A stretch of 50,042 bases of DNA. Origin: an uncultured bacterium. Its GTDB lineage: Bacteria; Gemmatimonadota; Gemmatimonadetes; Longimicrobiales; Gaopeijiaceae. How positions within the stretch are numbered: the stretch's first letter is position 1; the number at the start of each line of letters is the position of its first letter. The DNA lies in contig CBDUAX010000001.1 in the NCBI GenBank assembly GCA_965365235.1, positions 1-50,042 on the forward strand, given 5' to 3'. A program made the translations under genes and the position numbers. This document shows positions 8,352 to 46,615 of the stretch, piece by piece. The notes beneath the pieces are model-generated. The model saw only the letters and a program-made list of their open reading frames with translations, was not told the DNA's origin and made no database searches.

Positions 8352-8397
8352 CCATTCCTCCGGTCTTGGACCGTTCTCGTTCACTTGCGCAAAAAGT

Positions 8398-8432
8398 CAG
8401 GCTGCTCAAACTAAGGCAGCCTGAACGTTTTT
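8398..8432. other. terminator-like hairpin in a divergent intergenic region
   Basis: CAGGCTGC (8398-8405) pairs perfectly with GCAGCCTG (8416-8423) around a 10-nt loop. It is flanked by AAAAAGT on the left and AACGTTTTT on the right. It lies between the divergently oriented peptidase and pilin genes, so its role is unclear. Confidence 0.3.
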
Positions 8433-8604
8433 GCATCGGGAGGTGGTTCCCGCCTGGAGCCGTGACGGCCGATCTCTCATTGAGTCCCGGGGTACAAGTG
8501 CCGAAATTGTGGAAGGCCGGCGAGAGACCCCCTCTCCTTTGGCCGGAGAAGCCCGGACCCGTACCCCCGAGAACGACTCTCGGGGGCGCAAGCGGAGGGA
8601 GAGG

Positions 8605-17102: not shown

Positions 17103-17174
17103 AGCCCCCGATAGTACGATGAACCAGTTTTTTGGGGAGGGGTCCTGACCTGTAGCGTTCTACCGGGAAAAGCC

Positions 17175-18233
17175 GTGGTTGAGCTTCCAGTTCTCAAGCA
17201 GTCCAGGGAGTGGTTGACCGGAAAGACGGGTCGTCGCAGCGACCGAACCTTTCGCGTCAGAATTCTCGTCCAACTTCTCTTCGCTCTGGTCTCGATTGTT
17301 ATCGGTTTCCAGATCGCCGGGTTTTATCGGGCCGCATTGGCCGGCTCCCTTCCGCTTCCGACCCGGCCTCCTGGCGTAGAAGGGTACCTCCCCATCAGCG
17401 GGCTGATGGGGTTGTTGGACTGGGGCTACCAGGGGACCCTCAACACCATCCATCCGGCTGCAACGATCCTCGTGGTCATCGCCCTGTTTCTGGCGATTCT
17501 CCTACGAAAGGCATTTTGCTCCTGGGTGTGCCCGGTAGGGTTCCTTTCCGAGTTGCTGGCCCGTTTCGGGCGCTGGTCGTTCGGTCGGAACTTCCGGCCA
17601 TGGAGGTGGTTGGACGTACCGCTCCGGAGCTTGAAGTACCTCCTCATGGCTTTTTTCGTGGGAGCGGTCCTTTCCATGACGGCATCGGAGCTTCAGGGAT
17701 TCATCCAGTCGCCCTACAACAGGGTGGCTGACATCAAGATGGGGCTCTTCTTCGTCGACATGAGCCGGACGGGAATTCTGGTGGTGGGTGGGCTGGTCTT
17801 GTCATCGATCTTCGTTTCGGGATCCTGGTGCCGGTATCTGTGCCCGTACGGAGCTCTCCTGGGCCTTTTTTCATGGATCTCCCCCAATCGGATCGGACGG
17901 GACAATGGCCGGTGCGTTGAATGTGGGCTCTGTGACAAGGTTTGTATGGCGCGGATCCCCGTTTCCCAGAAGCACAATGTCCTCAACCCAGAATGCACAG
18001 GATGCCTTGACTGTGTAGCGGTTTGTCCGGTACCGGATACATTACAGATGAACCTCTTAAAACACCGACCGGTCCGGCCCATGGCTTTTGCAGGGGCCGT
18101 ACTCGGACTCTTCCTGGCCGGATACCTGGGGGCACGGGTAACCGGAAGCTGGGCAAACCAGATCTCCGATGTGGAGTACGTGGAACGGCTCCAGAATATC
18201 GACTCTCCCTTATACGGACACCCGGGCCGGTAG
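17175..18233 (+). CDS. membrane polyferredoxin of the NapH/MauN/NosR/CcoG type (4Fe-4S binding)
   Basis: GTG start. Two Cx3CP motifs (CSWVCPVG, CRYLCPYG) lie between TM helices, and there are two ferredoxin motifs (CVECGLCDKVC, CTGCLDCVAVCP). Confidence 0.85.
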   Translation: MVELPVLKQSREWLTGKTGRRSDRTFRVRILVQLLFALVSIVIGFQIAGFYRAALAGSLPLPTRPPGVEGYLPISGLMGLLDWGYQGTLNTIHPAATILVVIALFLAILLRKAFCSWVCPVGFLSELLARFGRWSFGRNFRPWRWLDVPLRSLKYLLMAFFVGAVLSMTASELQGFIQSPYNRVADIKMGLFFVDMSRTGILVVGGLVLSSIFVSGSWCRYLCPYGALLGLFSWISPNRIGRDNGRCVECGLCDKVCMARIPVSQKHNVLNPECTGCLDCVAVCPVPDTLQMNLLKHRPVRPMAFAGAVLGLFLAGYLGARVTGSWANQISDVEYVERLQNIDSPLYGHPGR

Positions 18234-18306
18234 GCTGGCGGGTGGGCTGGCGCGTAGGCTCCCCTGGGCCAACCGGGTCCCGGTTTCAAGAAAGAATGGA
18301 TTGGCG

Positions 18307-19506
18307 ATGAAGAACCGGTCGTGGCAAATACTGACTTTGATGGGCCTGGTGACTGTGGGGCTTCCTCTCCACGGCCAGGAGACATCTGTCAAGTTCGGAG
18401 GCCAGGTTCGGCCTCGCATGGAGGGTCGGGATCCCGTGGCTGGCGAGCGAGATGTCTTCACCTCCATGAGGGTGAGGGGAGCTCTGGATGCGAGTCTGGA
18501 GAACCAGGTGAGAGTGTTCGTCCAGTTTCAGGACGTACGACTCTTCGGTGAGGAGACGAATACACTTGGAGACTATTCGGGAGACAACCTGGACCTGCAT
18601 CAGGGTTTCCTGGAGTTGGGCTCCGTACCCCACTTTGGCGGAGTCTTCAGGGTCGGTCGGCAGGAGATGGCTCTGGGTGAGCAGCGGCTGGTTGGAGCGG
18701 TGAACTGGACCCAGCAGGGCCGCAGTTTCGACGGAGCCCGATACACCACCCCCTCTCTGGGCAGCCTGACGATCGACCTCTTTGGGATGAAGCTTCGTGA
18801 AGAGACGGCTAGCACCCAGGAGTTCGATTCAGAATTCTGGGGGGCTTGGGGAAACATCGACCTTGGGGAGCGAGGGTCTCTGGAAGTCTTCGGGCTCCTG
18901 ACCACAGACTCCCGCGATGAAGGGACCGAAGAGCGAACGCTGGGCGCCCTCTGGAGAGGGACGGCTGGACCGGTCCAACTGAGGGCCGAGGGAAGCCTTC
19001 AAGGGGGCACCCGGGGAGACGAGGACGTATCGGCGTTTATGGTGGGCCTCAGGGCCGGCATCAACCTCTCGGACGTCGGCACCGTCACCCTATGGTACGA
19101 CCACCTCTCCGGTGACGAAGATCCTGACGATGGAGAGAGCGGGGTCTTCAATACCCTCTTCGCCACCAACCACGCCTTCTATGGGTTCGCCGACTACTTC
19201 CTCAATATTCCGGTCCATACCGGTGGTTTGGGCCTCAGGGACACGGCCCTCAAGTTCGCTTTCTTCCCATGGGAGCAGACACGGCTCACGGTGGACCTCC
19301 ACATTTTCCAGACGGCCCAGGACGGCTCTCTTTCCACTCAGTCCCTTGGGAATGAGTTCGATGTCACCCTCAGTCGTCCCATCTCGCAGGGCCTGAGCCT
19401 GGGGGCCGGTTACGCCTACTTCCAGGCAAAGGATGGAATGGAGGAGCTGGGACGCCTCGAAGAAGACGCCCAGTGGTTCTATCTGATGCTGGACGCGGCG
19501 TTTTAG
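18307..19506 (+). CDS. outer-membrane porin, alginate-export (AlgE-like) family
   Basis: ATG 18307 gives the signal peptide MKNRSWQILTLMGLVTVGLPLHGQE. The core FRVGRQEMALGEQRLVGAVNWTQQGRSFDGARY is typical of the Alginate_exp family. Ends in F. Confidence 0.7.
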   Translation: MKNRSWQILTLMGLVTVGLPLHGQETSVKFGGQVRPRMEGRDPVAGERDVFTSMRVRGALDASLENQVRVFVQFQDVRLFGEETNTLGDYSGDNLDLHQGFLELGSVPHFGGVFRVGRQEMALGEQRLVGAVNWTQQGRSFDGARYTTPSLGSLTIDLFGMKLREETASTQEFDSEFWGAWGNIDLGERGSLEVFGLLTTDSRDEGTEERTLGALWRGTAGPVQLRAEGSLQGGTRGDEDVSAFMVGLRAGINLSDVGTVTLWYDHLSGDEDPDDGESGVFNTLFATNHAFYGFADYFLNIPVHTGGLGLRDTALKFAFFPWEQTRLTVDLHIFQTAQDGSLSTQSLGNEFDVTLSRPISQGLSLGAGYAYFQAKDGMEELGRLEEDAQWFYLMLDAAF

Positions 19507-19590: not shown

Positions 19591-19608
19591 CTGTGATCCC
19601 TGTCACAG
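19591..19608. promoter_or_regulatory. CRP/HcpR-type operator CTGTGA-N6-TCACAG upstream of the Rieske-Nap operon
   Basis: CTGTGATCCCTGTCACAG has perfect 6+6 inverted arms and is centred about 80 nt upstream of ATG 19679. The same architecture occurs at 44776..44793 and 43154..43171. Confidence 0.6.
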
Positions 19609-19678
19609 CCGCTTCCAGAGACGCTCGGTACCTTGGTGCCCAGGTGGGAAATCCGGAAATCCCAGAGGGGGATCCAGA

Positions 19679-20296
19679 ATGTCAGATTCCGAACCGACGG
19701 TAGGGAGAGACCAGGACGACCGCAGGGCCTTCCTGGGCAAGGCCTCGAACGCTGCGATGGCAGCCGGTCTGGTTGGTGGCTACGGAGGATTGGGCGCCAT
19801 CGCGGTCCGGTACCTGTACCCGGCCGGTGACACGGACATGGCGTGGCAGTACGTGGTGGAGGAGGACGAAGTGGATGTGGGGGCTTCGATCTTGTACAAA
19901 GGTCCCTCTGGAGAGACCATCAATATTGCCCGCCAGGGCCGAGGAAATGGGGTAGCCGATTTCATCGCCCTCTCCAGCACCTGTCCCCACCTGGGATGCC
20001 AGGTTCGTTGGGAAGGACAGAACGAGCGCTTCTTTTGCCCTTGCCACAACGGTGTTTTTGATCCCTCGGGGAAAGGGATCGGGGGGCCCCCAGGGGATGC
20101 CGGACAGAGTCTTGCAGAATACCCACTGAAACTTGAGGGCGGACTCTTGCATATTGCGGTTCCCGTCGTACGCCTGGCGGACGGATCCCTCGCCGAGGGG
20201 GAGGTCCTGGTGGCGGAAGAGAGACCCGAGGGCCCCGGCCATGATCCCTGCTTGGCCCCGCCCTCTTCCGGTGGGGGGAAGGTCAGGAGGGGCTGA
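19679..20296 (+). CDS. Rieske [2Fe-2S] subunit of a cytochrome bc/b6f-type complex
   Basis: Tat motif DDRRAFLGKA with a TM anchor. Rieske boxes CPHLGC and CPCHNG. Confidence 0.9.
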   Translation: MSDSEPTVGRDQDDRRAFLGKASNAAMAAGLVGGYGGLGAIAVRYLYPAGDTDMAWQYVVEEDEVDVGASILYKGPSGETINIARQGRGNGVADFIALSSTCPHLGCQVRWEGQNERFFCPCHNGVFDPSGKGIGGPPGDAGQSLAEYPLKLEGGLLHIAVPVVRLADGSLAEGEVLVAEERPEGPGHDPCLAPPSSGGGKVRRG

Positions 20297-20298
20297 CC

Positions 20299-21348
20299 AT
20301 GAGCCAGGTCCTGAACTGGGTGGGAGAGAGGCTTCCCATCTCCGGGAGGGAGCTCAAGGAACTAACCAACGAGCCCGTTCCCTACCATCTGAAACGCTGG
20401 TGGTTCGCCCTTGGAGGGACCCCCGCATACCTGTTCGTGGTTCAGATCTTCACGGGAATCCTCCTGGCATTTTATTATGAGGCTTCTCCTTCCACGGCCT
20501 ACCAATCGGTAGAGTTCATCACAAGAGAGGTTTCCTTCGGGTGGTTCATCCGGAGCCTCCACAAGTGGGCGGCCACCCTCATGATCGCCGCCGTGATTCT
20601 TCATCAGATCCGGGTGTATTTCACGGGTGCCTACCGCCGTCCGCGAGAGATCAACTGGTTCGTGGGCATGTGTCTTCTGCTGACGACCCTCATGACAGGG
20701 TTCACCGGGTACAGCCTGGTGTTCGAACAGCTGAGCTTCTGGGGAGCTACGGTGGGTGCCAACATCGCCGACGCCACACCTCTGATCGGGGGGTTTTTGA
20801 AGGCGATGATGCTTGGGGGAGAAAGCTACAACCAGGCAACCCTGTCACGCTTCTTCGTGCTCCATGCTGCCATCCTGCCGGTGACCATCGTTCTGTTGGT
20901 GGCGGTCCACATCACCATCATCCGGCTTCAGGGGGTGACGGAGTTCCAATTCGAAGATGAGAAGACCGGCTCGAGGAAGACCTTCAACTTCTTCCCCGAT
21001 CACCTCTATACCGAGCTCATGATCGGCTTGGTTCTCATGATCCTCCTGAGCGCCTTGGCCACCATCTTCCCCGCTACCCTGGGGCCGGCCGCCAATCCCC
21101 TTCAGACACCGGAAGTCATCAAGCCCGAGTGGTTCTTCTACGTGGCGTTCCGTTGGCTGAAGCTCTTCACCGGTACGGCCGCCATTCTGAGCATGGGGTT
21201 TGTTCTTTTCGTCATGTTCGCGTGGCCCTTTATCGACGCACTCATCCGGAAGAAGACCCGGTTCCAGGAGGCCTCCGTCTGGATCGGAATCCTGGGAGTA
21301 CTGGCCATCATCGGGCTGACCCTTTGGGAAGCCATCGCCAAGCACTGA
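20299..21348 (+). CDS. cytochrome b (fused b6 + subunit-IV-like)
   Basis: Starts 2 nt after the Rieske stop. Motifs WWFALGG, FIRSLHKWAATLMIAAVILHQIRVYFTGAY, and the Qo-site PEW motif (IKPEWFFY) in the C-terminal part. Confidence 0.9.
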   Translation: MSQVLNWVGERLPISGRELKELTNEPVPYHLKRWWFALGGTPAYLFVVQIFTGILLAFYYEASPSTAYQSVEFITREVSFGWFIRSLHKWAATLMIAAVILHQIRVYFTGAYRRPREINWFVGMCLLLTTLMTGFTGYSLVFEQLSFWGATVGANIADATPLIGGFLKAMMLGGESYNQATLSRFFVLHAAILPVTIVLLVAVHITIIRLQGVTEFQFEDEKTGSRKTFNFFPDHLYTELMIGLVLMILLSALATIFPATLGPAANPLQTPEVIKPEWFFYVAFRWLKLFTGTAAILSMGFVLFVMFAWPFIDALIRKKTRFQEASVWIGILGVLAIIGLTLWEAIAKH

Positions 21349-21357
21349 GGCACGTAA

Positions 21358-22995
21358 ATGACCCTCGAGACAAAACGCATCGTTATCGCTTCTTTGGGCG
21401 GACTCTTCCTTCTGTCCCTGGTTTTCGTTCAGTGGATGGAGACCGCAAGGAAGGCGGAGGAGGCGGGGTTGAGAGATGCCCATGTCGCCGTGCCGGCGGC
21501 TTCGGAACAGTGTGTGGACTGCCATGCCGAGGAGAACCCGGGCATTGTCTCGCACTGGACGGGAAGTACCCACGCCGAGCGGGGCGTGGGGTGCTATGAC
21601 TGCCACATGGCGGTCCCCGACGATGCCGACGCCTACCTCCATCATGGGGTGCAGGTGGCAACGGTAGTCACGCCCAGGGATTGTGCCCGATGCCACGACG
21701 CTGAGGCATCGGAGTTTTCCCAGAGCCACCACGCGGCAGCCGGGAATATCCTCGCTTCGTTGGACAACTTCCTGGCTGAGACGGTGGAGGGGGCCCGGAT
21801 GGACTTCAACCCCCACTCACCGACACCGGGAAGGGCCTTCGAGTCCGCGAACGGCTTCGCTTCCGCCAACTCAGGGTGCAAGCAATGCCATGGGGCCCAG
21901 GTCGGACTGGTTGCCACGGATGGTAGCATCATTACCGCGGACCATCTCCAACCCGATGAAGACGGGCTCCCGACCAATCAAGATGCTGTGGCCCGCATCG
22001 CCCTGGACGAGAACGGAAAGCCCTACCTGGCCCCCTCCGGTTGGCCGAATACCGGGATCGGACGCCTGAACCTGGATGGGTCCAAGGGTTCCTGCACGGC
22101 ATGTCATTCCCGCCACGACTTCTCACCCCGGAGGGCCAGACAACCCGAGAACTGCGGAAAATGCCATCTGGGTCCTGATCATCCCCAGAAGGAGATCTAC
22201 GAGGAGTCCAAGCATGGGATCGCATATCGAGACCTCAAAGAGGACATGAACCTCGCCTCAGAGAGCTGGGTTCTGGGGGAGGACTATGCTGCGGCTCCCA
22301 CCTGCGCGACTTGCCACATGTCCGGGAACCTCCGGAATGGCGGGCGAATCACCCATGACCCGGGGGAACGGATCTCGTGGACCAACCGCCCCGCGGTGAG
22401 CCTTGTCATGGACACGGATATCAACCACTCCATCGTCACCGAAACCGATCCGGAGACCCGGCGATCGCTCATCCATGACACCTGGACGGAGAAGCGAGAC
22501 CGGATGAAGGAGGTCTGCACACACTGTCATACTGATGACTATGTGAACTCCTTCTACAGCCAGTACGACGACCTGGTGGTTCTGTACAACGAGAAGTTCG
22601 CCAAGCCCGGCTTGGCCATCATGGCGTCAATCCTGGAGAACGACCTACGGACCTCCACTCAGTTCGATGAAGAGATCGAGTGGTCCTGGTTCTACCTCTG
22701 GCACCACGAGGGCCGAAGGGCCCGGCACGGTGCCTCCATGATGGCGCCGGATTACACCCATTGGCACGGGATGTACGAGGTGGCCGAGCGCTTCTACATG
22801 GAGCTGATCCCACAGGCTCGGGAAATCGCCGCTCACGCCATGACGAGCGGGCACGCCGCCGCAGGTCGAGCCGTAAGCGCGGTCATCGATGAGATCCTGG
22901 CTCGGCCCGAACACATCTGGTTCGAGGAGGGGGCTGAAGGGCAGGCGGAAGCCATCCGGAGAGAGATGGAACGACGCTACGGCAGGGGCGGATGA
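21358..22995 (+). CDS. membrane-anchored octahaem cytochrome c, hydroxylamine-oxidoreductase (HAO)-like family
   Basis: Eight CxxCH motifs (CVDCH, CYDCH, CARCH, CKQCH, CTACH, CGKCH, CATCH, CTHCH) and no CxxCK. N-terminal hydrophobic anchor IVIASLGGLFLLSLVFVQW. HAO-like blocks GPDHPQKEIYEESKHG and WFYLWHHEGRRARHGASMMAPDYTHWHG. The family assignment is from memory of these blocks. Confidence 0.78.
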   Translation: MTLETKRIVIASLGGLFLLSLVFVQWMETARKAEEAGLRDAHVAVPAASEQCVDCHAEENPGIVSHWTGSTHAERGVGCYDCHMAVPDDADAYLHHGVQVATVVTPRDCARCHDAEASEFSQSHHAAAGNILASLDNFLAETVEGARMDFNPHSPTPGRAFESANGFASANSGCKQCHGAQVGLVATDGSIITADHLQPDEDGLPTNQDAVARIALDENGKPYLAPSGWPNTGIGRLNLDGSKGSCTACHSRHDFSPRRARQPENCGKCHLGPDHPQKEIYEESKHGIAYRDLKEDMNLASESWVLGEDYAAAPTCATCHMSGNLRNGGRITHDPGERISWTNRPAVSLVMDTDINHSIVTETDPETRRSLIHDTWTEKRDRMKEVCTHCHTDDYVNSFYSQYDDLVVLYNEKFAKPGLAIMASILENDLRTSTQFDEEIEWSWFYLWHHEGRRARHGASMMAPDYTHWHGMYEVAERFYMELIPQAREIAAHAMTSGHAAAGRAVSAVIDEILARPEHIWFEEGAEGQAEAIRREMERRYGRGG

Positions 22996-25379
22996 TCATG
23001 AAGCGCAGAAACTTTCTGAAAACGTTGGGGGCCAGCACCGCTGGCATCGCCGCCTTCTCATGTCAGGACCAGGAGGCTGCCCGACGCATTGCCTCCGAGC
23101 AGGGGTCCGTCCAGGATGCAGACCTGACCTGGACCAAGGCGCCTTGTCGATACTGTGGGACCGGTTGTGGTGTTGAGGTCGGTGTGAAAGAGAACCGCAT
23201 TTTGGCGGTGCGAGGAGACGAGGCCAGCCCAGTCAACAGGGGACTCCTCTGCGTGAAGGGTTACCACCTCCCCGCCATGCTCTACGGAGAGGACCGCCTC
23301 AGGTACCCCATGCTCCGAAACCCGGACGGAAACGGGTTCTCACGGATCTCCTGGGACGAAGCGTTGGACCTCATCGCGCAGAAGTACCAGGAAGCCCTGG
23401 ACGAGGCGGGACCCACATCTGTCGCCTTCTACGGGTCGGGACAGTGGGGCATTCACGACGGGTATGCCGTGACCAAGTGGTTCAGGGGGGGGCTCAAGAG
23501 TAACAATGTGGAGCCCAACGCGCGGCTCTGCATGGCCAGCGCCGTGATGGGGTTCGTGACGACGTTCCAGAGCGACGAGCCGATGGGGTGCTACGAGGAC
23601 TTCGAGGCCGGCGACGACTTCATCCTCTGGGGCAACAACATGGCCGAGATGCACCCCGTCCTCTTCTCTCGGATCCTGGCCAACAAACGAGAAAACCCTG
23701 GAGTCCGGATCGTCGATCTAGGCACGCGACGGACGCCCACGTCGGACTACGCCGACATGTACGTGGAGTTCAAACCCAACACCGACCTGGCCCTGGCCAA
23801 TGGAATCCTCCACCTCCTCGTCCAGAATGGGCAGGTGGATCAGGCCTTCGTCCAGGAGAACGTGACCTTCCGACGAGGGATCGAGGAGTTGGAGCGTATC
23901 GGATACGGGTCCTTCGGGGAGGATGGTCTCGGACTGAGTTCAGACGATGGACCGGCCGAGCACTACAGGTTCTCCGACCAGGCCCAGGTGTCTTCATTCG
24001 ATGAGATGGTGGTGTTCCTGGCCGATTACACCCCGGCTCGGGTCAGCGAGATTTGTGGGGTCCCGGAAGGACAGATCCGGGCTCTGGCCGAGATGTACGG
24101 GGATCGGGACCGGGGCACGGTGAGCCTCTGGTGCATGGGCGTGAACCAGCACGTCCGGGGCACCTGGATGAACAACCTCATCACCGACCTTCACCTCATC
24201 ACTGGGAAGATCAGCCGTCCGGGGAACAATCCCTTCAGTCTTACCGGCCAGCCCTCGGCCTGTGGCACCGCTCGAGAGGTAGGGACCTTGTCCAACCGGC
24301 TGCCGGCCGACCTGGTGGTCATGAACCCGGAGCATCGGGCGAAGGCGGAGGAGATATGGGGACTTCCCTCCGGGACTATCCCGGAGCGGCCCGGCTACCA
24401 TACCATGGACATGTTTCGTGCCTTCATGCGGGGTGACGTGAAAGTCATGTGGGTGCAAACCACGAACCCCTGGGTGAGCATCCCCAATGTCAACCGCATA
24501 CAGCGGGAACCGAACGACGGACGTTTCCTCATCGTCAGTGACATCTATCCGACTCCGACCACAGAAGCGGCCGACCTGGTTCTGCCCTCCGCCGGGTGGG
24601 TGGAGCGGGAAGGGACCTTCGGGAACTCGGAACGCCGCACACAGCACTGGGTGAAGGCGGTGGATCCACCCGGTGAAGCCCGTGAAGACGCCCTCCAGGT
24701 CATTCAGGTGGCCAAGCGTATGGGAATGGAAGACCTCTTCCCCTGGCCGGAGGACGCTTTCCACGAACCCATGTTCGAGGAATACCGGCGTTTCGGTTTG
24801 GGCATCGGGAAGGATCTCGCATCCTACCAGCAACTGAAGGAGACGAGGGGGCTTCTGTGGCCCGTGGTGGACGGGAAGGAAACCCGGTATCGGTATGCCG
24901 CCGGGTTCGATCCCTATGTTCAGAAGGAACGGGGAGTGCACTTCTACAAAGCGAAGGGTTTTGGGGAACGTGCGGCCTTCTGGCTCAGGCCGTACCATCC
25001 AGCGGCTGAGACGCCAGATGAGGAGTTCCCCTTCTGGCTTTCCACCGGTCGGATCCTGGAGCACTGGCATACAGGATCCATGACCCGGCGGGTGAAACAG
25101 CTCCACCAGGCCGCCCCCGAGGCCTACGTAGAAATCAACCGAGCCGATGCCACCGAGATGAGCATCAATTCGGGAGACATGGTCAGGGTGGTAAGCCGCC
25201 GTGGATCGCTGAGGCTCGCGGCACGGGTGGATGGACGAGGACAACCCCCTCGAGGATCCTTGTTCATTCCCTTCTTCGACGAACACCGCCTGGCCAATCT
25301 CCTCACCCTGGATGCCATGGACAACATCAGCAAAGAACCGGATTTCAAGAAGTGTGCGGTTCGGGTCGAGAAGGCGTGA
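22992..25379 (+). CDS. napA: periplasmic nitrate reductase catalytic subunit NapA
   Basis: ATGA overlap with the upstream stop. Tat signal MKRRNFLKTLGASTAGIAAF. N-terminal FeS motif CRYCGTGCGV...C(VKGY). Molybdopterin oxidoreductase body, 795 aa. Confidence 0.93.
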   Translation: MIMKRRNFLKTLGASTAGIAAFSCQDQEAARRIASEQGSVQDADLTWTKAPCRYCGTGCGVEVGVKENRILAVRGDEASPVNRGLLCVKGYHLPAMLYGEDRLRYPMLRNPDGNGFSRISWDEALDLIAQKYQEALDEAGPTSVAFYGSGQWGIHDGYAVTKWFRGGLKSNNVEPNARLCMASAVMGFVTTFQSDEPMGCYEDFEAGDDFILWGNNMAEMHPVLFSRILANKRENPGVRIVDLGTRRTPTSDYADMYVEFKPNTDLALANGILHLLVQNGQVDQAFVQENVTFRRGIEELERIGYGSFGEDGLGLSSDDGPAEHYRFSDQAQVSSFDEMVVFLADYTPARVSEICGVPEGQIRALAEMYGDRDRGTVSLWCMGVNQHVRGTWMNNLITDLHLITGKISRPGNNPFSLTGQPSACGTAREVGTLSNRLPADLVVMNPEHRAKAEEIWGLPSGTIPERPGYHTMDMFRAFMRGDVKVMWVQTTNPWVSIPNVNRIQREPNDGRFLIVSDIYPTPTTEAADLVLPSAGWVEREGTFGNSERRTQHWVKAVDPPGEAREDALQVIQVAKRMGMEDLFPWPEDAFHEPMFEEYRRFGLGIGKDLASYQQLKETRGLLWPVVDGKETRYRYAAGFDPYVQKERGVHFYKAKGFGERAAFWLRPYHPAAETPDEEFPFWLSTGRILEHWHTGSMTRRVKQLHQAAPEAYVEINRADATEMSINSGDMVRVVSRRGSLRLAARVDGRGQPPRGSLFIPFFDEHRLANLLTLDAMDNISKEPDFKKCAVRVEKA

Positions 25380-25444
25380 TGAGGCTTTCCGGGAGGGGCA
25401 CCGGATGGCGGGAAAGCGGTCCAGAGGCCGGCCGAGGTGCGGGC

Positions 25445-26056
25445 ATGCGGTTTCCCTCACTGTTCCAGAAGGCCTCGCTCCTGTTCTTGACGGGGAGTTT
25501 GATGGTGTCCCTGGTGGCCTGCGGGGATCGGGAGTGGGTTCCGGTCGAAGGCAAGGAGGGTGCGCTCAAGTCGAGCGCTAGCTACCGGGCGGATCGACGG
25601 CTCTACGACGGAGCACCTCCCGTGATCGGCCATGGTGACTTTGGGGCCGATTGTGCCACCTGCCATCATTCTCAGGGGATCTCGGTGGCCGGTGTTGGAT
25701 TCGCCCCGGCCTCTCCCCATGAGGATACGCGTGAGGAGGTGGCCACGACCCGGTGTAGACAATGCCATGTCTTTGCCAATACGACCGAGATTTTCGCTGA
25801 GAGTGACTTTGTCGGGTTCAGGCAGGACCTGAGGTCCGGAGGGCGCCTGTACGACGGCGCGCCACCAACCATCCCGCACAAGATCCTCATGCGGGAAAAC
25901 TGTGCGGCATGCCACACCGGGCCGGCTGCCCGGACTGAAATCGCCACGTCCCATCCGGAGCGGACCCGCTGTCGCCAGTGTCATGTTCCTGTCTCCACCC
26001 GCGACACCTTCTCTCTTCAAGGGACCATGGACCCGGAGGGATCGGACGAACCATGA
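25445..26056 (+). CDS. napB: tetrahaem lipoprotein made of two tandem NapB-like dihaem modules
   Basis: MRFPSLFQKASLLFLTGSLMVSLVAC has a lipobox. There are two repeats of RLYDGAPP(V/T)I(G/P)H...CxxCH...CRQCHV (CATCH/CRQCH and CAACH/CRQCH). An alternative start, ATG 25379, shares a base with the napA stop. Confidence 0.75.
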   Translation: MRFPSLFQKASLLFLTGSLMVSLVACGDREWVPVEGKEGALKSSASYRADRRLYDGAPPVIGHGDFGADCATCHHSQGISVAGVGFAPASPHEDTREEVATTRCRQCHVFANTTEIFAESDFVGFRQDLRSGGRLYDGAPPTIPHKILMRENCAACHTGPAARTEIATSHPERTRCRQCHVPVSTRDTFSLQGTMDPEGSDEP

Positions 26057-26627: not shown

Positions 26628-27674
26628 CTATTTCTGCTCCAAATCCGGATATAGCCTCACCACGCACTCAGGGCAGAGACCGTGGGTGACCTCGGCGTCG
26701 GAATGGTCCTTGAGGTAGACCTCGATCCGATTCCAGTACCCATCGTCATCCCTGATCTTGTGGCATGATGAGCAGATGGGGATCAGGCCCTGGAGGGTCC
26801 TGACCTTCGAAAGGGCGATCTGAAGTTCCTCGATCAGTGCTTCCTTCTCCCGCTCCTCAGCCTTCCTGTCCGAGATATCGTGGATCAGGGAGCAGAGTAA
26901 CTGCCTCCCTCCGACCGAAATGGGCCCGCTGAACACCTCCACCTCCCGGACCGTTCCGTCGGCCAGGCGATGCGTGAAAAGGAAGTAGTTCCTCTGCTCT
27001 GCTTTTGCCCTCTCCATCTCTTCGAAGATCTCGTACTCAGAGAGGATGTTGATATCCGTGATCTTCGTTTCTCTGAGTTGCCCGCGGCTCATCCGGTAGA
27101 ACTCGGTAGCCCGGACATTGGCATCTTTGATTGAGCCCGTCTCGGGGTCGATGAGGAGTATGGGAGAGACGTTGTTCTCGAAGAGCGACCTGTACAGATC
27201 CTCCTGTTCTTGCCGCAGGGATTCGGCCTCTTCCCTGGCCGTCACGTCCTGGATGGTCTCCACAATGGCAGAAAGCTCTCCTCCGGCGTCCCGGATGGGC
27301 CAGGCGACAAACTCTTCTGAATATCGAACTCCGCCACGTTCAACGACCCTCACCTCGCTCTTCTCAACCTCCCCCGAGGCGAGTGCCCGGATCCCGGGAC
27401 AGTCCTCGCAGGGGTGGCTGCGGTCCAAGAGAGCCGAAAAACAGAACCGCCCCTCCAGAGGAAGCTTCTCGGGAAACCGGGATCGCACCGGCTGGTTGGC
27501 ATGCAGGATTTTCAGATCGGGGCTGAGGACGACGAGCCCGTCTCTCATCGAATCGAGGATCTCTCTCAGGAATCCTTCACTTTCATCTGGTACTCCTGGG
27601 ACATTCATTTCTGAACCTCGGTGGGGGATCAGATTTTGGTCCGGGGCTTCCTCGTACCTGCTACCCCGACCCAT
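26628..27674 (-). CDS. tandem-PAS sensor protein with C-terminal CxxC...CxxC zinc-ribbon-like tail
   Basis: Two PAS-like blocks (ILDSMRDGLVVLSPD..., LYRSLFENNVSPILLIDPETGSI...). The tail reads LIPICSSCHKIRDDDGYWNRIEVYLKDHSDAEVTHGLCPEC. An alternative start is ATG 27608. Confidence 0.85.
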   Translation of the reverse strand: MGRGSRYEEAPDQNLIPHRGSEMNVPGVPDESEGFLREILDSMRDGLVVLSPDLKILHANQPVRSRFPEKLPLEGRFCFSALLDRSHPCEDCPGIRALASGEVEKSEVRVVERGGVRYSEEFVAWPIRDAGGELSAIVETIQDVTAREEAESLRQEQEDLYRSLFENNVSPILLIDPETGSIKDANVRATEFYRMSRGQLRETKITDINILSEYEIFEEMERAKAEQRNYFLFTHRLADGTVREVEVFSGPISVGGRQLLCSLIHDISDRKAEEREKEALIEELQIALSKVRTLQGLIPICSSCHKIRDDDGYWNRIEVYLKDHSDAEVTHGLCPECVVRLYPDLEQK

Positions 27675-37416: not shown

Positions 37417-39483
37417 TCAACTGCTTTCAGGGAGGGCGGGAAGGCCGATCCTCTCTTGCAGACGAACGAAGCGTGGATGTGACCGAACCGGATCGAAGAT
37501 TCGATGCCCACCCATGAAGAGGACAAAACCCAGACGGAGCTCCACAGCCTCTTCCATGTAGTCCATGGCTTTTTCTATTTCCCCCAGTCCCATGTGCGCG
37601 AAACAGAAGTCGACCTCCAAAGACACTTCAGGTTCCCTCCGGCGCCGTTCCTCCAGTAGCCCAAAGAGTTGGCGGGCTTCCTCTCTTCGCCCCATGGCCG
37701 TCAGTGCGAAGATCCGGTGCGGGATAACCTTGAATGGGTCTCCCGTTCGCCGGATGATCTCCTCGAACTCCTTCATTGCCTCCGGGACCCGGTCCTGGGC
37801 TGCATAGGCCCACCCCAACATCTCTCTTGCTGAGCGGAACTCAGGATCGAGCTCCAGGACCTGCTTGAGTTGGGCTTCGGCCTCTCCGGCTCGGTCCAGG
37901 TGGAGAAGGGTCTCCCCCAGGGCGGTCCGGATCAGGCTGGACAGGGGATCGAGCTGGAGGGCGAGCTGAAGCTCCTCCTCTGCGCCCTCCCCGTCACCCA
38001 TGGCCTTCAGGTACATGGCGTAGAGGCGCCGGAGGGGGGCAGCCCCCGGTGTAAGTGAGATGGCCTTTTGAAAGTGCCGGTACGCGCCGTCGAAGTCCCA
38101 GTCATGGAAGAAGAGAACTGTGGCCATGGCGGCATGAGCGGCTCCCGATCCGTCTTCCAGCTCCAACGCCTTCTGGGCCGCCTCCCTGGCCCGGGCATAG
38201 GCATTCTTCGGATGCATGTGGCCGATGGCGGCGAGAAAGGTATAGGCGGTACCCATGCCGGCGTAGGGAAGCCCGCAGTCCGGGTCCATCTCGATCGATC
38301 GCTGGAAGTGACGGATAGCGGCTCGAGATCCTTCCGGCGACCATCGCTGGAACGCGTGAGCGCCCTTCAAGAACTCGGTGTAAGCCTCCGTGTCGTGAAC
38401 ATGGTGGGGCACAAGGCGCGGTCGTTCCCTTTCACCCCCCTGAATGCCACGACCTGGAATTTCCGACGGTGCCGGGTCCTCTGTTGGGGAGCTGGCCTCC
38501 TGAGGGTGGTGTACGCGCCTCTCCGGCTTCGCCTCTACACTTCCGGCGGCCACATCCCCCAGGAACTGCCCTTCCAACTCCTCCATGATCGTGCGGGCCA
38601 ACTCGTCCTGGGTTTCGAAGATATCGGTGATGTCCCGGTCGTATACCTCCGAAAAGAGATGGTAACCGTCCTTGGTGTTGATGAGCTGAGCCGCGATTCG
38701 TACTCGGTTGCCGGCCCGACGGACGCTCCCCTCCAGCACGGTTGAGACACCCAGTTCCTCCCCGATGGTGCGAACGTCCAGGTTCTTGCCTTTGAAGGCG
38801 AAGGACGAGGTCCTGGCCGTGACCTGCAGCCCGTTCACGCGGGTGAGGGCGTTGATGATCTCCTCCGTGATCCCATCGCTGAAGAACTCATTCTCGGGAT
38901 CTGAGGACATGTTCATGAAGGGGAGCACGGCGATGCTGTTCCTGTAGTCCGAGGGGCGGGAGCCCATCTCGGTCGGATCCGGAACGACGAGTCCATCGTT
39001 GGCGATGGCCCAGACCTCCATGGGGCGTTTGACATTCTTCAGAGCGAATGAGCCCATGGATCGGGTCAAAATTCCCGACTGGTTCTTCACCTCGTCGAAG
39101 ACCTTCTCGGAGATGAGGACCCCGCCGGGTGTAGCGAGGCCTTGGACCCGGGCCGCCAGGTTGACCCCGTCTCCGAAGACTCCCTCATCGTCGTAGATGA
39201 TGTCCCCGGTGTGGATCCCCACTCGAACGGGCACGGGTGGATCTTTTCTCAGGTCGGTTTGGATGGCGATGCTGCACTCTACGGCCAGGATTGCACTCTG
39301 GAAGACGCTGAGGGCTCCATCGCCATAGAACTGCAGAATATTCCCCTGGTGTTTCTCCACCTCCCGGACCAGGACATCCCGATTCCGGTCCCGGCTCTGC
39401 TTGGCACGGTCCTCATCCTCCTGCATGAGAGCCGTGTAGCCGACCATGTCGGCGAACATGATAGCGGTGAGCTGCCGGTTCAT
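37417..39483 (-). CDS. class III adenylate/guanylate-type nucleotidyl cyclase with TolB-like and TPR regions
   Basis: Cyclase motifs IMFADMVGYTALM, FYGDGALSVF, RVGIHTGD and GDGVNLAARV. These are followed by IAVLPFMNMSSDPENEFFSDGITEEIINAL (TolB-like) and C-terminal TPR repeats. Confidence 0.9.
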   Translation of the reverse strand: MNRQLTAIMFADMVGYTALMQEDEDRAKQSRDRNRDVLVREVEKHQGNILQFYGDGALSVFQSAILAVECSIAIQTDLRKDPPVPVRVGIHTGDIIYDDEGVFGDGVNLAARVQGLATPGGVLISEKVFDEVKNQSGILTRSMGSFALKNVKRPMEVWAIANDGLVVPDPTEMGSRPSDYRNSIAVLPFMNMSSDPENEFFSDGITEEIINALTRVNGLQVTARTSSFAFKGKNLDVRTIGEELGVSTVLEGSVRRAGNRVRIAAQLINTKDGYHLFSEVYDRDITDIFETQDELARTIMEELEGQFLGDVAAGSVEAKPERRVHHPQEASSPTEDPAPSEIPGRGIQGGERERPRLVPHHVHDTEAYTEFLKGAHAFQRWSPEGSRAAIRHFQRSIEMDPDCGLPYAGMGTAYTFLAAIGHMHPKNAYARAREAAQKALELEDGSGAAHAAMATVLFFHDWDFDGAYRHFQKAISLTPGAAPLRRLYAMYLKAMGDGEGAEEELQLALQLDPLSSLIRTALGETLLHLDRAGEAEAQLKQVLELDPEFRSAREMLGWAYAAQDRVPEAMKEFEEIIRRTGDPFKVIPHRIFALTAMGRREEARQLFGLLEERRRREPEVSLEVDFCFAHMGLGEIEKAMDYMEEAVELRLGFVLFMGGHRIFDPVRSHPRFVRLQERIGLPALPESS

Positions 39484-42405: not shown

Positions 42406-43125
42406 TCAGTTTTTGGGTGGCGGATCCGAAGCCTCTTCGCCTCGGGCCAGGACTTCCAACTTGCCGATGGACAGGATGGTCACCTGTCTGCCTTCCGTTT
42501 GGATAACTCCTTTTTGCCGAAGATCGGCCAGGGCCCGCGCCACGCTCTCGCGGCTCGTGGCCAACTCATGGGCCAACTCGGACTGGGTTCGTGAGAGTTT
42601 GAACGTGCCTCCATTTGTCAGCACTCCTGCCATTTCAGCCAGCTCCAGAAGGGTTTTGGCGACCCGGCTTGGAACGCTTCGAAGGGTCACCTTCTCCACG
42701 ACCTGGACCAACTTCCTCAAGCGGCGGCCGAGGTTTCGGATCACTGCATCGGCGATCTCGGGGTGCTCATGGTACAGTCTCTGGAAGTCGTCGCGGGACA
42801 GGAAGAAGAGCTCGGAGTCCTCTGCCGTTCGGCCAGCCGCGGGGTATTCCCCCTCGTCGAAAACCGGCAGCTCCGCGACACTCTGAACGGGCACTTCGGA
42901 GTGGAGGATCTGTTCTCGGCCGTCTGCCGTTGTCCTGTAGATTTCCACCCTTCCCTTCACCAGCACGTAGACACCCCGGGCCGTCTCCCCCTTCCGGAAG
43001 AGGATCGTGCCGGCTGACGCCGACCTGTGAACCATACGTTGGGCGACCAACTCCAAAGCCTCCTCTGAGAGGCCCTTGAAGAAGGAAACGCCCTTCAACT
43101 GGTCTTTCGGATTCCGAAAAGGCAC
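42406..43125 (-). CDS. Crp/Fnr-family transcription regulator (CRP-like recognition helix)
   Basis: cNMP-binding-like domain (FFKGLSEEALELVA..., FRKGE, YVLVKGRVEIY). HTH LSRTQSELAHELATSRESVARAL with an R-E-x3-R pattern. No N-terminal FNR Cys cluster. GTG 43125 is preceded by AAGGA. The ORF-track ATG 43194 is the alternative. Confidence 0.85.
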   Translation of the reverse strand: MPFRNPKDQLKGVSFFKGLSEEALELVAQRMVHRSASAGTILFRKGETARGVYVLVKGRVEIYRTTADGREQILHSEVPVQSVAELPVFDEGEYPAAGRTAEDSELFFLSRDDFQRLYHEHPEIADAVIRNLGRRLRKLVQVVEKVTLRSVPSRVAKTLLELAEMAGVLTNGGTFKLSRTQSELAHELATSRESVARALADLRQKGVIQTEGRQVTILSIGKLEVLARGEEASDPPPKN

Positions 43126-43153
43126 AGCTGTCCTTGTCAGGCTCAGGCGGAAA

Positions 43154-43171
43154 CCGTGATATTCGTCACAG
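43154..43171. promoter_or_regulatory. CRP/HcpR-type box CCGTGA-N6-TCACAG (one mismatch) between the regulator and the second octahaem gene
   Basis: The sequence is CCGTGATATTCGTCACAG. It is intergenic only if the regulator starts at GTG 43125. Confidence 0.45.
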
Positions 43172-43322
43172 AAAAATGATGGGCCATCCGTCATAATGGA
43201 AGACAGTGACCAGCCGCCGGAGCAAACGCCGTTCCGGGCGGCTTTCAGAATCTCCTCTTCGCCCGGAGCGATTTGGGCGCTTCGGTGGCGGAAAACCTAT
43301 GCCTCTTCTCGGGAGGTGAGCT

Positions 43323-44621
43323 GTGCTTCAGTCCGTATCAAGCGGGGGTAGTCGAAACGCCCTCGGCTTCGTCCTTTTCCTGACACCACTCCTTCTTCTC
43401 GCATTTTCCTTTCCCACCGCTGCCTCGGCACAGAACAGGGAGTGCGTCACCTGCCACCTGGAAGAAACACCGGGGATGGTGGCTGACTGGGAGGCCAGCC
43501 GGCACGCCGAGGTGGGCGTGGGATGCACCACCTGTCATGGCGAGGGTGACCATGACGCGTACGATATGGGGCGAATCGACAAGATCCCGACCCCCGAAAC
43601 GTGCCGTACCTGTCACCCGGCCCAGGTCGAACAGTTCTCCTCCGGGAAACATGCGCTGGCGTGGGCGGCCATGAACGCCATGCCATCGATTCACGCCCAA
43701 CCGGTAGCTCTTACGGATGGGATGAAGGGATGTGGCGGGTGCCACAAGATCGGGCTGAAAGACGAGGACACCCTCAGAGAGTTGAAGGAGACGGGGGCAG
43801 GGTACGGGCTAGCGTCTTGTGACGCCTGTCATACCAGACACCTCTTCTCGGTCAAAGAGGCCAGGCAACCACAAGCGTGCCAGACCTGCCATATGGGGAT
43901 GGACCACGCCCAGTGGGAGATGTACTCCACTTCGAAACATGGTGTCCGGTACCTCCTGAAACAGAATGGGACCCTTCCAGAGAGCGTCGCGGCTCCTACC
44001 TGCCAGACGTGCCACATGTCTGAGGGGAACCATGAGGTTCGGACGGCCTGGGGGTTCCTGGGGTTGAGGACGAATGGACTGGCACCCTACCCGGGAGAAA
44101 GCGACGAGTGGTGGGCTGATCGGGTCACCATTCTCCAGGCCTTGGGAATTCTGGATCCAGACGGGAATCCTACCGGCCGGCTGGATGTGGTGGCTGCCGC
44201 CCAGGTGGCGCGCTTGAGTGCAGAAGAGTTCGATGCGGAGCGGGACAAGATGATCGGAATCTGCACCGGTTGTCATGCGGAGGCCTTCGTTCTGGCCGAG
44301 CTCAAAAAGGGTGACGATCTGATTCGAGAGGGCGACCGAGTCCTGGCCGAGGCCATCCGGATTGTCGCGGGCTTATATCAGGAGGGAATTCTGGAACAGC
44401 CGGAGGGGTATGCCTATGCCTTCCCGGATCTCCTCACCTTCCACGATGCTCCGACCCGGATCGAGCAGACGCTGTTCAGGATGCACCTCGAGTACCGTCA
44501 GCGCCTTTTCCAGGGGGCCTTCCACAACAACCCCGATTACTCGCTCTGGTACGGATGGAGTGAGTTGCAGCAGGGGTTGGCAGAGGTCAAACAGATGGAT
44601 GAGGAAATGAGAGGGCACTGA
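43323..44621 (+). CDS. periplasmic octahaem cytochrome c, short HAO-like paralogue
   Basis: GTG start after GGGAGG. Signal peptide ...LLLLAFSFPTAASAQ. Eight CxxCH motifs (CVTCH, CTTCH, CRTCH, CGGCH, CDACH, CQTCH, CQTCH, CTGCH). The blocks MGMDHAQWEMYSTSKHG and FQGAFHNNPDYSLWYG parallel those of the 21358..22995 protein. Confidence 0.78.
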   Translation: MLQSVSSGGSRNALGFVLFLTPLLLLAFSFPTAASAQNRECVTCHLEETPGMVADWEASRHAEVGVGCTTCHGEGDHDAYDMGRIDKIPTPETCRTCHPAQVEQFSSGKHALAWAAMNAMPSIHAQPVALTDGMKGCGGCHKIGLKDEDTLRELKETGAGYGLASCDACHTRHLFSVKEARQPQACQTCHMGMDHAQWEMYSTSKHGVRYLLKQNGTLPESVAAPTCQTCHMSEGNHEVRTAWGFLGLRTNGLAPYPGESDEWWADRVTILQALGILDPDGNPTGRLDVVAAAQVARLSAEEFDAERDKMIGICTGCHAEAFVLAELKKGDDLIREGDRVLAEAIRIVAGLYQEGILEQPEGYAYAFPDLLTFHDAPTRIEQTLFRMHLEYRQRLFQGAFHNNPDYSLWYGWSELQQGLAEVKQMDEEMRGH

Positions 44622-44682
44622 CCGGCCGAAGGGACCCCTCGATCGGGTAGATCGACGGTCCGACAGAGAGTTTGGTATTCCA

Positions 44683-44720
44683 CCCACGGGGGCGAAGGAT
44701 CGCCCCCGTGGGTTTCTGCT
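44683..44720 (+). terminator. intrinsic terminator after the second octahaem gene
   Basis: A 12-bp perfect stem CCCACGGGGGCG / CGCCCCCGTGGG with loop AAGGAT, followed by TTTCTGCTT. Confidence 0.75.
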
Positions 44721-44775
44721 TCCGGATAGTCCTTGATTGGGTCAGGGGCCCTGGCGGTGAAGATGGGGGTTCTGG

Positions 44776-44793
44776 CTGTGACTGGGATCACAG
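44776..44793. promoter_or_regulatory. CRP/HcpR-type operator CTGTGA-N6-TCACAG upstream of the DUF438-hemerythrin gene
   Basis: CTGTGACTGGGATCACAG has perfect arms. It is centred about 72 nt upstream of ATG 44857. Confidence 0.6.
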
Positions 44794-44856
44794 CCTCCGG
44801 GTATCGGAATGCCTAACCTTTTTGAGACTCTGAGAACCCCGGACGAGAAGGCCCGT

Positions 44857-46267: not shown

Positions 46268-46615
46268 CTAACTCCCGGGTTCTCTGATCATCGTCAGGAG
46301 CATCTTAAAAGGCGTGACGGCAGAGAGGGCGTGAGGGATACTGGCTGGAAGGAGAAGACCCTCCCCGGCCCGTACCCGATGCGGGGTCCCACCAATGGTG
46401 ATCTCGACGGTCCCGTCCAACACCTGTACCACCGCATCATGTGGGGTAGAGTGTTCACTCAGCCCCTCCCCCTCGTCGAAGGCAAAAAGGGTGAGGGTTC
46501 CTGAGGCCTTCTTCAACAGGGTGCGACTGACCACGGCTCCTTCCTGGTAATCCAGGAGCCCCCGCAGGTCCGAGGGGGAATCCAGGGCGGGACCCGAGTT
46601 CTCTTTCTTCGTCAT
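46268..46615 (-). CDS. cupin-domain protein
   Basis: 115 aa with GEGLSEHSTPHDAVVQVLDG...G...IPH, a cupin two-motif pattern. Confidence 0.8.
   Translation of the reverse strand: MTKKENSGPALDSPSDLRGLLDYQEGAVVSRTLLKKASGTLTLFAFDEGEGLSEHSTPHDAVVQVLDGTVEITIGGTPHRVRAGEGLLLPASIPHALSAVTPFKMLLTMIREPGS

Follow-up and report, generated by a model that had tools for sequence, protein, structure and literature searches.

The window analysed here, 50,042 nucleotides (nt) of contig CBDUAX010000001.1 from an uncultured bacterium of the Gaopeijiaceae (phylum Gemmatimonadota), encodes a regulator of the Crp/Fnr family that probably governs a local regulon (rough probability 0.75), acting with an R-E-x3-R recognition helix at the TGTGA-N6-TCACA boxes of four transcription units. 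In the proposed mechanism this helix would bind the boxes, and the bound regulator dimer would contact RNA polymerase and switch class II promoters on. The units to be activated would be a NapH-like gene with a porin gene, an operon for Rieske, cytochrome b, octahaem cytochrome, NapA and NapB-like proteins, the gene of a second octahaem cytochrome of 432 residues, and the gene of a DUF438-hemerythrin-PAS protein. In related genomes the pair of regulator and box would also serve the gene of a small hemerythrin and an operon for cytochrome c and nosZ, and on its own proximal box, which lies over the predicted start site, the regulator would repress its own gene. An earlier sequence-only reading of the window had assigned both octahaem cytochromes, the Rieske-Nap operon and the hemerythrin-PAS protein to one co-ordinating regulator; the boxes behind that proposal hold, and the link to the 432-residue octahaem cytochrome is its weakest part.

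The regulator and the boxes

The longest open reading frame (ORF) of the regulator gene (42406..43194, minus strand; its translation contains ELATSRESVARAL) includes a spurious N-terminal extension. Of 120 homologues, about 110 have their N-terminus at V24 of this frame, i.e., at GTG 43125, which has AAGGA 5 nt on its 5′ side; ATG 43194 has no Shine-Dalgarno (SD) sequence ahead of it and is ruled out as the start codon on both grounds. Homologues at 63–84% identity are numerous and nearly all 229–240 residues long, and those that carry a name are from Gemmatimonadota or Longimicrobiales metagenome-assembled genomes (MAGs). The extended frame is common only to the closest relative (P0001), and its peptide CDEYHG is the translation of the box that lies between the regulator and the 432-residue octahaem gene (the middle, or regulator-proximal, box). 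Since the regulator starts at GTG 43125, this box is intergenic and not intragenic; the sequence-only reading had named a start at ATG 43194, with the box inside the gene, as grounds for giving up its proposal, and these grounds do not apply.

Both parts of the protein are recognised by Pfam above cutoff, as cNMP_binding (PF00027, 2e-21, 76 bits) and HTH_Crp_2 (PF13545, 3e-16, 60 bits), and together with a structural model these matches reveal the beta-roll, the dimerisation helix and the C-terminal helix-turn-helix (HTH) of the Crp/Fnr superfamily. The AlphaFold2 model has a predicted local distance difference test (pLDDT) value of 84, and its top Foldseek matches are GlxR, Mycobacterium tuberculosis CRP and Thermus thermophilus CAP; the fold search returned generic CRP folds only and does not indicate a ligand. 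The recognition helix reads R192-E193-S-V-A-R197 (239-residue numbering). In a BLASTP alignment to the annotated crp product of E. coli K-12, R192, E193 and R197 are aligned to R180, E181 and R185 in an ungapped block, which confirms the CRP-type RE..R helix that had been read from the sequence earlier. The motif RESVAR is invariant or nearly so across 83–120 homologues.

Three perfect TGTGA-N6-TCACA boxes are present in the window (at 17088, 19592 and 44777), compared with 0.01 expected, and none of 100 shuffles reached three. With up to one mismatch the number rises to five, compared with 1.06 expected, by addition of the matches at 43155 and 43818. The four boxes that were retained are all intergenic, each 5′ of a transcription unit on the plus strand, and the middle box is separated from the regulator start by 30 nt. 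The three sites given in the sequence-only reading, here as 18-nt spans around the boxes, are present as written (43154..43171, cCGTGATATTCGTCACAg; 44776..44793, cTGTGACTGGGATCACAg; 19591..19608, cTGTGATCCCTGTCACAg), and its list was incomplete, having overlooked the perfect fourth site at 17088. The near-match at 43818..43833 (TGTGACGCCTGTCATA) was discarded as a site, as its position is within the octahaem gene and a -10 element at the right spacing is missing; it exists because the codons TGT GAC GCC TGT CAT of a CxxCH haem motif (C-D-A-C-H) spell it. Genes rich in CxxCH can thus yield false CRP-box matches.

Conservation of the boxes and geometry of the promoters

The comparison set consisted of 12 non-redundant orthologous Gemmatimonadota loci (267,786 nt), 11 of which are contigs encoding close homologues of the regulator. 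These loci contain 15 perfect boxes, all between called genes, compared with 0.1 expected, and boxes accompany the regulator gene in 11 of the 12. The layout, with a cupin gene and the DUF438-hemerythrin-PAS gene divergent from the regulator gene and an aconitase-family gene, is kept across loci; in L088 and L089 an octahaem gene is inserted between the DUF438 unit and the regulator, as in the window. A Rieske/cytochrome b/octahaem/NapA operon with the same gene order as in the window is located within 10 kb of the regulator in L082 and L170, clusters with a nos_propeller-type nosZ are near the regulator in L081, L083 and L088, and a NapH-like gene is near it in L174. Sorted by target, boxes are found at the DUF438-hemerythrin-PAS gene (seven of the eight loci with the gene), the hemerythrin gene (three), the Rieske-Nap operon (three), the NapH-like gene (two) and the cytochrome c-nosZ operon (one). 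Orthologous loci devoid of the motif would have spoken against the sequence-only reading; instead, the motif stands before the same gene families. The orthologous locus L172, which has no DUF438 gene and no Nap or Nos genes within 10 kb, contains no box and serves as a negative control.

A natural control is provided by more distant regulators, mostly 27–42% identical, whose loci were obtained from pattern-based scans of genome and metagenome contigs. Among the matches listed, regulators without arginine at position 180 (CRP numbering) are accompanied by one perfect box in 1.37 Mb, and distant RE..R regulators by ten perfect boxes in 0.59 Mb. From these counts it follows that helix and box go together, as described by Rodionov et al., who found positions R180, E181 and R185 to be correlated with G3 and A6 of the site (PMC1274295). 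The distant loci with a box within 10 kb (L019, L057, L062, L080, L112, L118 and L120) encode regulators of about 30–37% identity from Bacillota and others, with helices like GASRETTTR. Two orthologous loci, L170 (340..1049) and L171 (755..1464), encode a PhdYeFM antitoxin in place of the DUF438-hemerythrin-PAS protein, L171 with an additional YoeB toxin gene, and both have retained the perfect box that normally serves the DUF438 gene, 107 nt before the regulator. In the locus of a 52%-identical relative with 75% GC (L091), a perfect box (8104..8119) and GAGATT at the class II offset precede a gene (8165..8500) for an Mrp/ApbC-like Fe-S cluster carrier of the DUF59-ParA type, a hint that in lineages further away the regulon also takes in genes for the repair or assembly of Fe-S clusters.

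The boxes are held at a fixed distance from a -10-like element. When 19 sites are aligned in the direction of the target gene and positions are counted from the first base of the box, A is found at +39 in 14 sites and T at +43 in 17. A hexamer of the form xAxxxT starts 22 or 23 nt after the box on all 19 target sides and on none of the 19 opposite sides; with a background of 6.5%, the associated P is ~3e-23. In all 19 target-oriented sites the -10-like hexamer is 29.5–30.5 nt away from the box centre, and if it is taken as -12 to -7 the box centre lies at -41.5 or -42.5, i.e., the class II position. Transcription of the four units in the window would then begin about 34 nt past the end of each box, near 17137, 19641, 43204 and 44826. 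As judged from their sequence, the predicted target promoters therefore have the geometry of CRP- or FNR-dependent class II promoters, with a site near -41.5 in place of the -35 element and upstream of -10. In a consensus scan no full sigma-70 promoter (-35/-10) turned up ahead of the DUF438, Rieske or NapH-like genes, and the only full consensus match in the spacer between the regulator and octahaem genes (43134..43163) is misplaced across the box. The missing consensus promoters fit a dependence on an activator.

The same 16-mer as in the middle box is found in L088 and L089, 32 nt ahead of the start of the regulator gene, and homologous proximal sites, which have a CGAAYR spacer and imperfect outer bases in common, are present in L081, L175 and, after correction of a miscalled start, L086. 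The concern, expressed along with the earlier proposal, that this box might not be conserved can thus be put aside. The proximal box begins 2 nt downstream of the -10 element of a putative regulator promoter (Table 1), the layout of which is kept in L081 (TTCCAA/CATGTT), L088 (TTGAAA/CAGATT) and L175 (TTCCGA/CATCTT), with a spacer of 16–17 nt; TCATCTT is kept in L082, L083 and L170. Box and adjacent -35/-10 elements are kept together in the window, L081, L086, L088 and L175. Since the box covers the predicted start site of the regulator gene (near 43166), a repression position, negative autoregulation is suggested, the active regulator probably acting as a repressor of its own gene.

In the window and in L088 a -10-like hexamer is also found at offset 22 on the octahaem side of the proximal box. 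The octahaem genes start 152 nt (window) and 157 nt (L088) from the box, behind the same SD sequence (GGAGGTGAG), and in the window transcription is predicted to begin near 43204, with a leader of about 119 nt. In these two genomes the proximal box may double as an activator site for the divergent octahaem gene. It is possible, if rather doubtful, that the box at 43155 is an autoregulatory operator only and that the 432-residue octahaem gene is outside the regulon, with a box-independent promoter in the 197-nt spacer. Homologous proximal boxes do occur where no octahaem gene is present (L081, L086 and L175), and the predicted leader is unusually long and structured. Moreover, the octahaem hexamer CATAAT overlaps the complement of the regulator -35 region, so that the match could be partly forced, and L081 has a similar hexamer (CAATTT) on that side without an octahaem gene. 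However, xAxxxT is located at exactly offset 22 in both genomes, the spacer contains no further box with up to two mismatches, its only full sigma-70 match straddles the box and is not downstream of it, and in both genomes the octahaem gene sits precisely between two box-bearing promoters. The 432-residue octahaem gene is therefore retained in the proposed regulon as the least secure of its four links, with the middle box probably acting first as an autoregulatory operator.

For the octahaem leader (43204..43322, plus strand) a long hairpin rich in GC is predicted (-55 kcal/mol, z = -2.35), and for the equivalent leader of L088 a different GC-rich hairpin. An Rfam scan detected no RNA family in the window, the octahaem leader included. 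The hairpin could be an attenuator or simply a GC-rich spacer.

Predicted target genes and their neighbours

The features of the regulon and of its surroundings are collected in Table 1. The best PDB sequence matches of the 432-residue octahaem cytochrome are the HAO-like entries 6t5e and 4n4j (HAO-like/epsilon-Hao-like), and the GTG start of its gene is preceded by the SD sequence GGGAGGTGA. The most likely start codon of the DUF438 gene is ATG 44857, not ATG 44809, where the ORF opens; this choice follows from the conserved distance between box and start, which is 64 nt from ATG 44857 compared with 64–68 nt in six orthologous loci, and from GAAGG 5 nt before the ATG. The closest solved structure to the DUF438-hemerythrin-PAS protein is the uncharacterised PF0695 (3cax), and a literature search on DUF438 returned no functional study.

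The small cupin gene, which is on the strand opposite to the DUF438-hemerythrin-PAS gene and adjoins its 3′ end, is kept in nearly every locus (L081, L083, L085, L086, L087, L089 and L171). In the window and most orthologous loci (L081, L083, L085, L086, L088, L172 and L175) the aconitase-family gene is situated 50–150 nt downstream of the regulator gene, with which it may be co-transcribed; no box precedes it. Aconitase-type Fe-S enzymes are sensitive to nitric oxide (NO) and O2, and the pairing of the two genes may have its meaning in this sensitivity. Convergent with the nap operon and directly beyond its end is the gene of a protein in which two PAS domains and no output domain were recognised; this protein may be a further sensory component. 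A Ser/Thr protein kinase ORF is divergent from the NapH-like gene, with the box at 17088 in the common spacer; the longest form of this ORF overlaps the box, so that translation probably begins at an ATG further in (residue 57 or 82). Ser/Thr kinase genes recur beside regulon members in L174 (7648..9813, between the NapH-like gene and the regulator) and L175 (12314..13585, after the hemerythrin gene).

Table 1. Positions of the regulator gene, boxes, predicted promoter elements, target genes and neighbouring genes in the window, and boxes at target genes of orthologous loci
Feature	Position	Strand	Remarks
Crp/Fnr-family regulator, 239 residues	42406..43125	-	GTG start; cNMP-binding-like sensor domain and Crp-type HTH
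Spurious N-terminal extension of the longest regulator ORF	43126..43194	-	promoter/operator DNA
Putative regulator promoter	43173..43201	-	-35 TTCCAT 43196..43201; 17-nt spacer; -10 CATTTT 43173..43178
Box of NapH-like gene	17088..17103		TGTGATGGGCATCACA; perfect; intergenic, 5′ of the gene
Box of Rieske operon	19592..19607		TGTGATCCCTGTCACA; perfect; 5′ of the operon
Regulator-proximal (middle) box	43155..43170		CGTGATATTCGTCACA; one mismatch
Box of DUF438-hemerythrin-PAS gene	44777..44792		TGTGACTGGGATCACA; perfect; 5′ of the gene
-10-like CAGTTT	17125..17130		NapH-like unit
-10-like TACCTT	19629..19634		Rieske operon
-10-like CATAAT	43192..43197	+	432-residue octahaem gene; 29.5 nt from box centre
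-10-like TAACCT	44814..44819	+	DUF438 gene; 29.5 nt from box centre
NapH/MauN-like membrane polyferredoxin	17175..18233	+	Pfam Fer4_5; NCBIfam NapH/MauN 84 bits, below cutoff
Alginate_exp-type outer-membrane porin (ORF)	18169..19506	+	Pfam Alginate_exp; after NapH-like gene
Five-gene Rieske-Nap operon	19679..26056	+	Pfam
Rieske gene	19679..20296	+	Pfam
Cytochrome b gene	20299..21348	+	Pfam
Octahaem cytochrome, 545 residues	21358..22995	+	eight CxxCH
NapA	22992..25379	+	NCBIfam NapA 965 bits (cutoff 904)
NapB-like tetrahaem cytochrome	25352..26056	+	four CxxCH
Octahaem c-type cytochrome, 432 residues	43323..44621	+	Pfam Multi-haem_cyto 3e-28; eight CxxCH; signal peptide
Terminator-like hairpin	44682..44713	+	14 pairs, 11 G-C; ends octahaem unit and separates DUF438 promoter
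DUF438 + hemerythrin + PAS_10 protein, 451 residues	44857..46212	+	Pfam; second ATG
Ser/Thr protein kinase (ORF)	15732..17102	-	divergent from NapH-like gene
Two-PAS-domain protein	26628..27674	-	no recognised output domain
TPR-repeat protein with adenylate/guanylate cyclase catalytic domain	37417..39483	-	3 kb from regulator
Aconitase-family gene, 600 residues	40553..42355	-	Aconitase and Aconitase_C fused; 3′ of regulator
Small Cupin_2 gene	46268..46615	-	3′ of DUF438-hemerythrin-PAS gene
DUF438 gene boxes	L081, L082, L083, L086, L087, L088		perfect; 64–68 nt before start
188-residue hemerythrin gene boxes	L082, L170, L175		one perfect, two with one mismatch
Rieske-Nap operon boxes	L082, L170		perfect; before Rieske (L082) and before the porin leading the operon (L170)
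NapH-like gene box	L174		perfect; CAGATT at same offset as the window hexamer
Cytochrome c-nosZ box	L081		perfect

Class of the regulator, its signal and alternative explanations

By sequence comparison the regulator clade is a distinct branch of the Crp/Fnr superfamily, the nearest relatives of inferable function including HcpR. In phmmer searches orthologues score 300–377 bits, a 52%-identical relative 232 bits and all other proteins at most 146 bits, with values of 104 for M. tuberculosis CRP, 73 for DNR, 72 for E. coli CRP and 31 for FNR. In NCBIfam the regulator belongs to no curated equivalog (CRP 86 bits, cutoff 266; Fnr 37 bits, cutoff 228). E. coli CRP, Mycobacterium CRP (Rv3676) and Corynebacterium GlxR are its best solved-structure matches by sequence and fold, and they have the TGTGA half-site, the R/E/R helix residues and the class II promoter geometry in common with it. 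Unlike these proteins, the regulator does not have the complete cAMP pocket: of the residues around the cAMP phosphate E72 is kept, but G71 is replaced by Ala, and R82 and S83 are aligned to Y/P and P/A in the alignments to E. coli and M. tuberculosis CRP, and these replacements extend to 120 homologues, the consensus of which reads AELPvFDGGxYPAS at the pocket. In addition, the predicted regulon is local and respiratory, not global and catabolic. The pocket residues rule out a role as cAMP receptor, despite the cyclase-domain gene 3 kb away. Fe-S sensing as in FNR is ruled out as well, since the 239-residue protein contains no cysteine at all, in agreement with the earlier observation that the N-terminal cysteine cluster of FNR is absent. 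Nor are the helix and boxes those of FNR (E-xx-SR and TTGAT-N4-ATCAA), the regulator having Arg at the CRP-180 position. A CooA-like N-terminal Pro2 ligand is ruled out because residue 2 is not conserved among homologues.

Desulfovibrio HcpR (HcpR1 branch; Rodionov et al. 2005, PMC1274295) also has no FNR cysteine cluster, an R180/E181/R185-type helix and a wTGTGA-N6-TCACAw motif, and an N-oxide has been proposed as its signal; genes for hemerythrin, cytochrome c and nitrate/nitrite reductases are frequent members of predicted HcpR regulons (PMC1274295). It is nevertheless unlikely that the regulator is a bona fide HcpR orthologue for nitrosative stress, with hcp as its primary target elsewhere in the genome. 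The best-scoring relatives whose function can be inferred from gene context are adjacent to hcp (126–136 bits, compared with the 104 and 73 bits of M. tuberculosis CRP and DNR). However, these scores are part of a broad shelf below or at 146 bits that is shared with regulators encoded away from hcp, equal or higher scores (up to 146 bits) are reached by several regulators whose function is unknown, and the identity to hcp-adjacent regulators in tblastn searches (31–37%) is no better than that to many others. The hcp-adjacent regulators (HcpR1-type) have the helix S/P-E-T-L-S-R, with S or P at position 180, and no TGTGA boxes. Searches with Hcp (tblastn) located hcp beside the regulator in 20 distant loci among the matches listed, but neither in the window nor in the orthologous loci L081–L089 and L170–L176, which include the 12 non-redundant loci searched within 10 kb of the regulator, and no hcp or frdX target was seen at the loci examined. 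Furthermore, the predicted targets serve respiration (Nap, NosZ and HAO-like cytochromes), and the host belongs to the Gemmatimonadota. The label 'HcpR-like' used in the sequence-only reading is kept only in the sense of a distant resemblance, in view of the lack of a nearby hcp, the 31–37% identity and the different helix and boxes.

By analogy, the regulator resembles DNR/NnrR or Nss in its target genes and Desulfovibrio HcpR in its CRP-type box. DNR and NnrR, Crp/Fnr activators without cysteine, work from a position near -41.5 at N-oxide reductase promoters, including nos, and DNR senses NO via haem. DNR is a detectable relative of the window regulator in sequence and fold (Foldseek rank 23), but DNR and NnrR use FNR-type boxes (TTGAT-N4-ATCAA) and have no R at position 180, whereas the boxes in the window are of the CRP type. 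The closest analogues by physiology, given the nosZ genes near the regulator in L081, L083 and L088, are the Nss regulators, NssR of Campylobacter and NssA/B/C of Wolinella and Nitrosophilus, which switch on nap, nrf and clade II nos genes when nitrate, NO or N2O is present (PMC11539149); in this comparison, which is by description and not by sequence, they differ in their motifs (TTGA-N6-TCAA or TTAAC-N4-GTTAA) and specificity residues. The arrangement of the target genes matches that of the Nap cluster of Caldithrix abyssi, in which Rieske and cytochrome b genes and an adjacent octahaem Hao-type (epsilonHao) cytochrome gene are present and for which nitrate reduction and nitrite ammonification have been proposed (PMC5317091). 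Gene order and accessory genes are different, the window encoding a NapB-like tetrahaem cytochrome and a separate NapH-like/porin unit, and the Caldithrix paper covers enzymes, not regulation.

Without cysteines, and without the Arg and Ser that contact the cAMP phosphate, the regulator is neither an Fe-S oxygen sensor nor a canonical cAMP receptor. The most likely signal is an N-oxide such as NO, or low oxygen, because the targets stand for the reduction of nitrate, of nitrite, NO or hydroxylamine and of N2O, together with di-iron hemerythrins. As a speculation, sensing could involve a cofactor that is not bound by cysteine, such as haem; His75, His121 and Met31 (239-residue numbering) are conserved in the regulator and are candidate ligands. 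There is also a small chance that the DUF438-hemerythrin-PAS_10 protein is an O2- or NO-binding partner that controls the regulator, in a two-protein di-iron loop over nitrate, nitrite and N2O respiration, since a regulator without Cys or a cNMP pocket may not sense alone. The gene of this protein, to which a DUF1858 domain is sometimes added, is almost invariably the divergent neighbour of the regulator gene and its best-conserved target. If true, this would be the first function for the DUF438 family.

It is improbable to a greater degree that the boxes are real but bound by another CRP-type protein encoded elsewhere, e.g., a true cAMP-CRP, with the adjacent regulator reading another site. 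RE..R helices are common to several Crp subfamilies, a cyclase-domain protein is encoded in the window, and 50 kb of the genome are in view. On the other hand, the boxes accompany the regulator gene in nearly all orthologous loci and occupy its promoter region, its helix is the invariant RESVAR, no paralogous Crp/Fnr gene is present in the window or in any orthologous locus examined, and L172, without target genes, is also without boxes. That the palindromes arose by chance or from repeat elements and play no part in regulation can be practically dismissed: short palindromes do arise by chance, and the near-match at 43818 owes its existence to haem-motif codons, but the excess over expectation is 150- to 300-fold, and the boxes are strictly intergenic, precede the same gene families across genomes and keep a fixed distance to -10 on the gene side only.

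Several points weigh against the proposed regulon, among them the two features of the octahaem promoter region described above, i.e., the overlap of CATAAT with the regulator -35 region and the similar hexamer in L081. The signal is deduced solely from the target genes, and the model of the regulator (pLDDT 84) merely resembles cAMP-binding CRPs. Another RE..R paralogue, located elsewhere in the incomplete genomes, could be the true binder. In L085 the DUF438 gene is present but the box at the usual position is degenerate (TGTGTCGGGTGTCGTA, three mismatches); the aconitase and DUF438 genes of this locus are split and its assembly contains frameshifts, and it looks like an error-prone assembly rather than a true loss of the box. 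Finally, three sediment metatranscriptomes yielded a few 151-nt contigs, mainly inside the octahaem gene and also at the 3′ end of the regulator gene, which indicate at most that the octahaem gene is transcribed in situ.

In soils and sediments, Gemmatimonadota are an abundant group of bacteria that possess clade II nosZ and are under discussion as N2O sinks (PMC9530729); a literature search returned nothing on the control of N-oxide respiration in this phylum. The present analysis offers a regulatory code, consisting of a regulator clade (over 100 members from metagenomes, with identities of 63% or more), an operator of 16 bp, class II promoters of fixed geometry and a core target set that comprises the Nap-Rieske/cytochrome b-octahaem operon, the HAO-like cytochrome, hemerythrins and nosZ. 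No new mechanism is revealed; the system is of the familiar Crp/Fnr class II activator type, in a little-studied phylum. As a reading from comparative genomics and promoter geometry, a well-delimited Crp/Fnr class II activator of N-oxide respiration genes is well supported. The code permits the prediction of regulons in MAGs and supplies promoter parts for reporter assays. It also suggests that the DUF438-hemerythrin-PAS and NapH-like/porin genes belong to N-oxide metabolism, and the constant pairing of the regulator with the uncharacterised DUF438-hemerythrin-PAS protein is the most interesting loose end.

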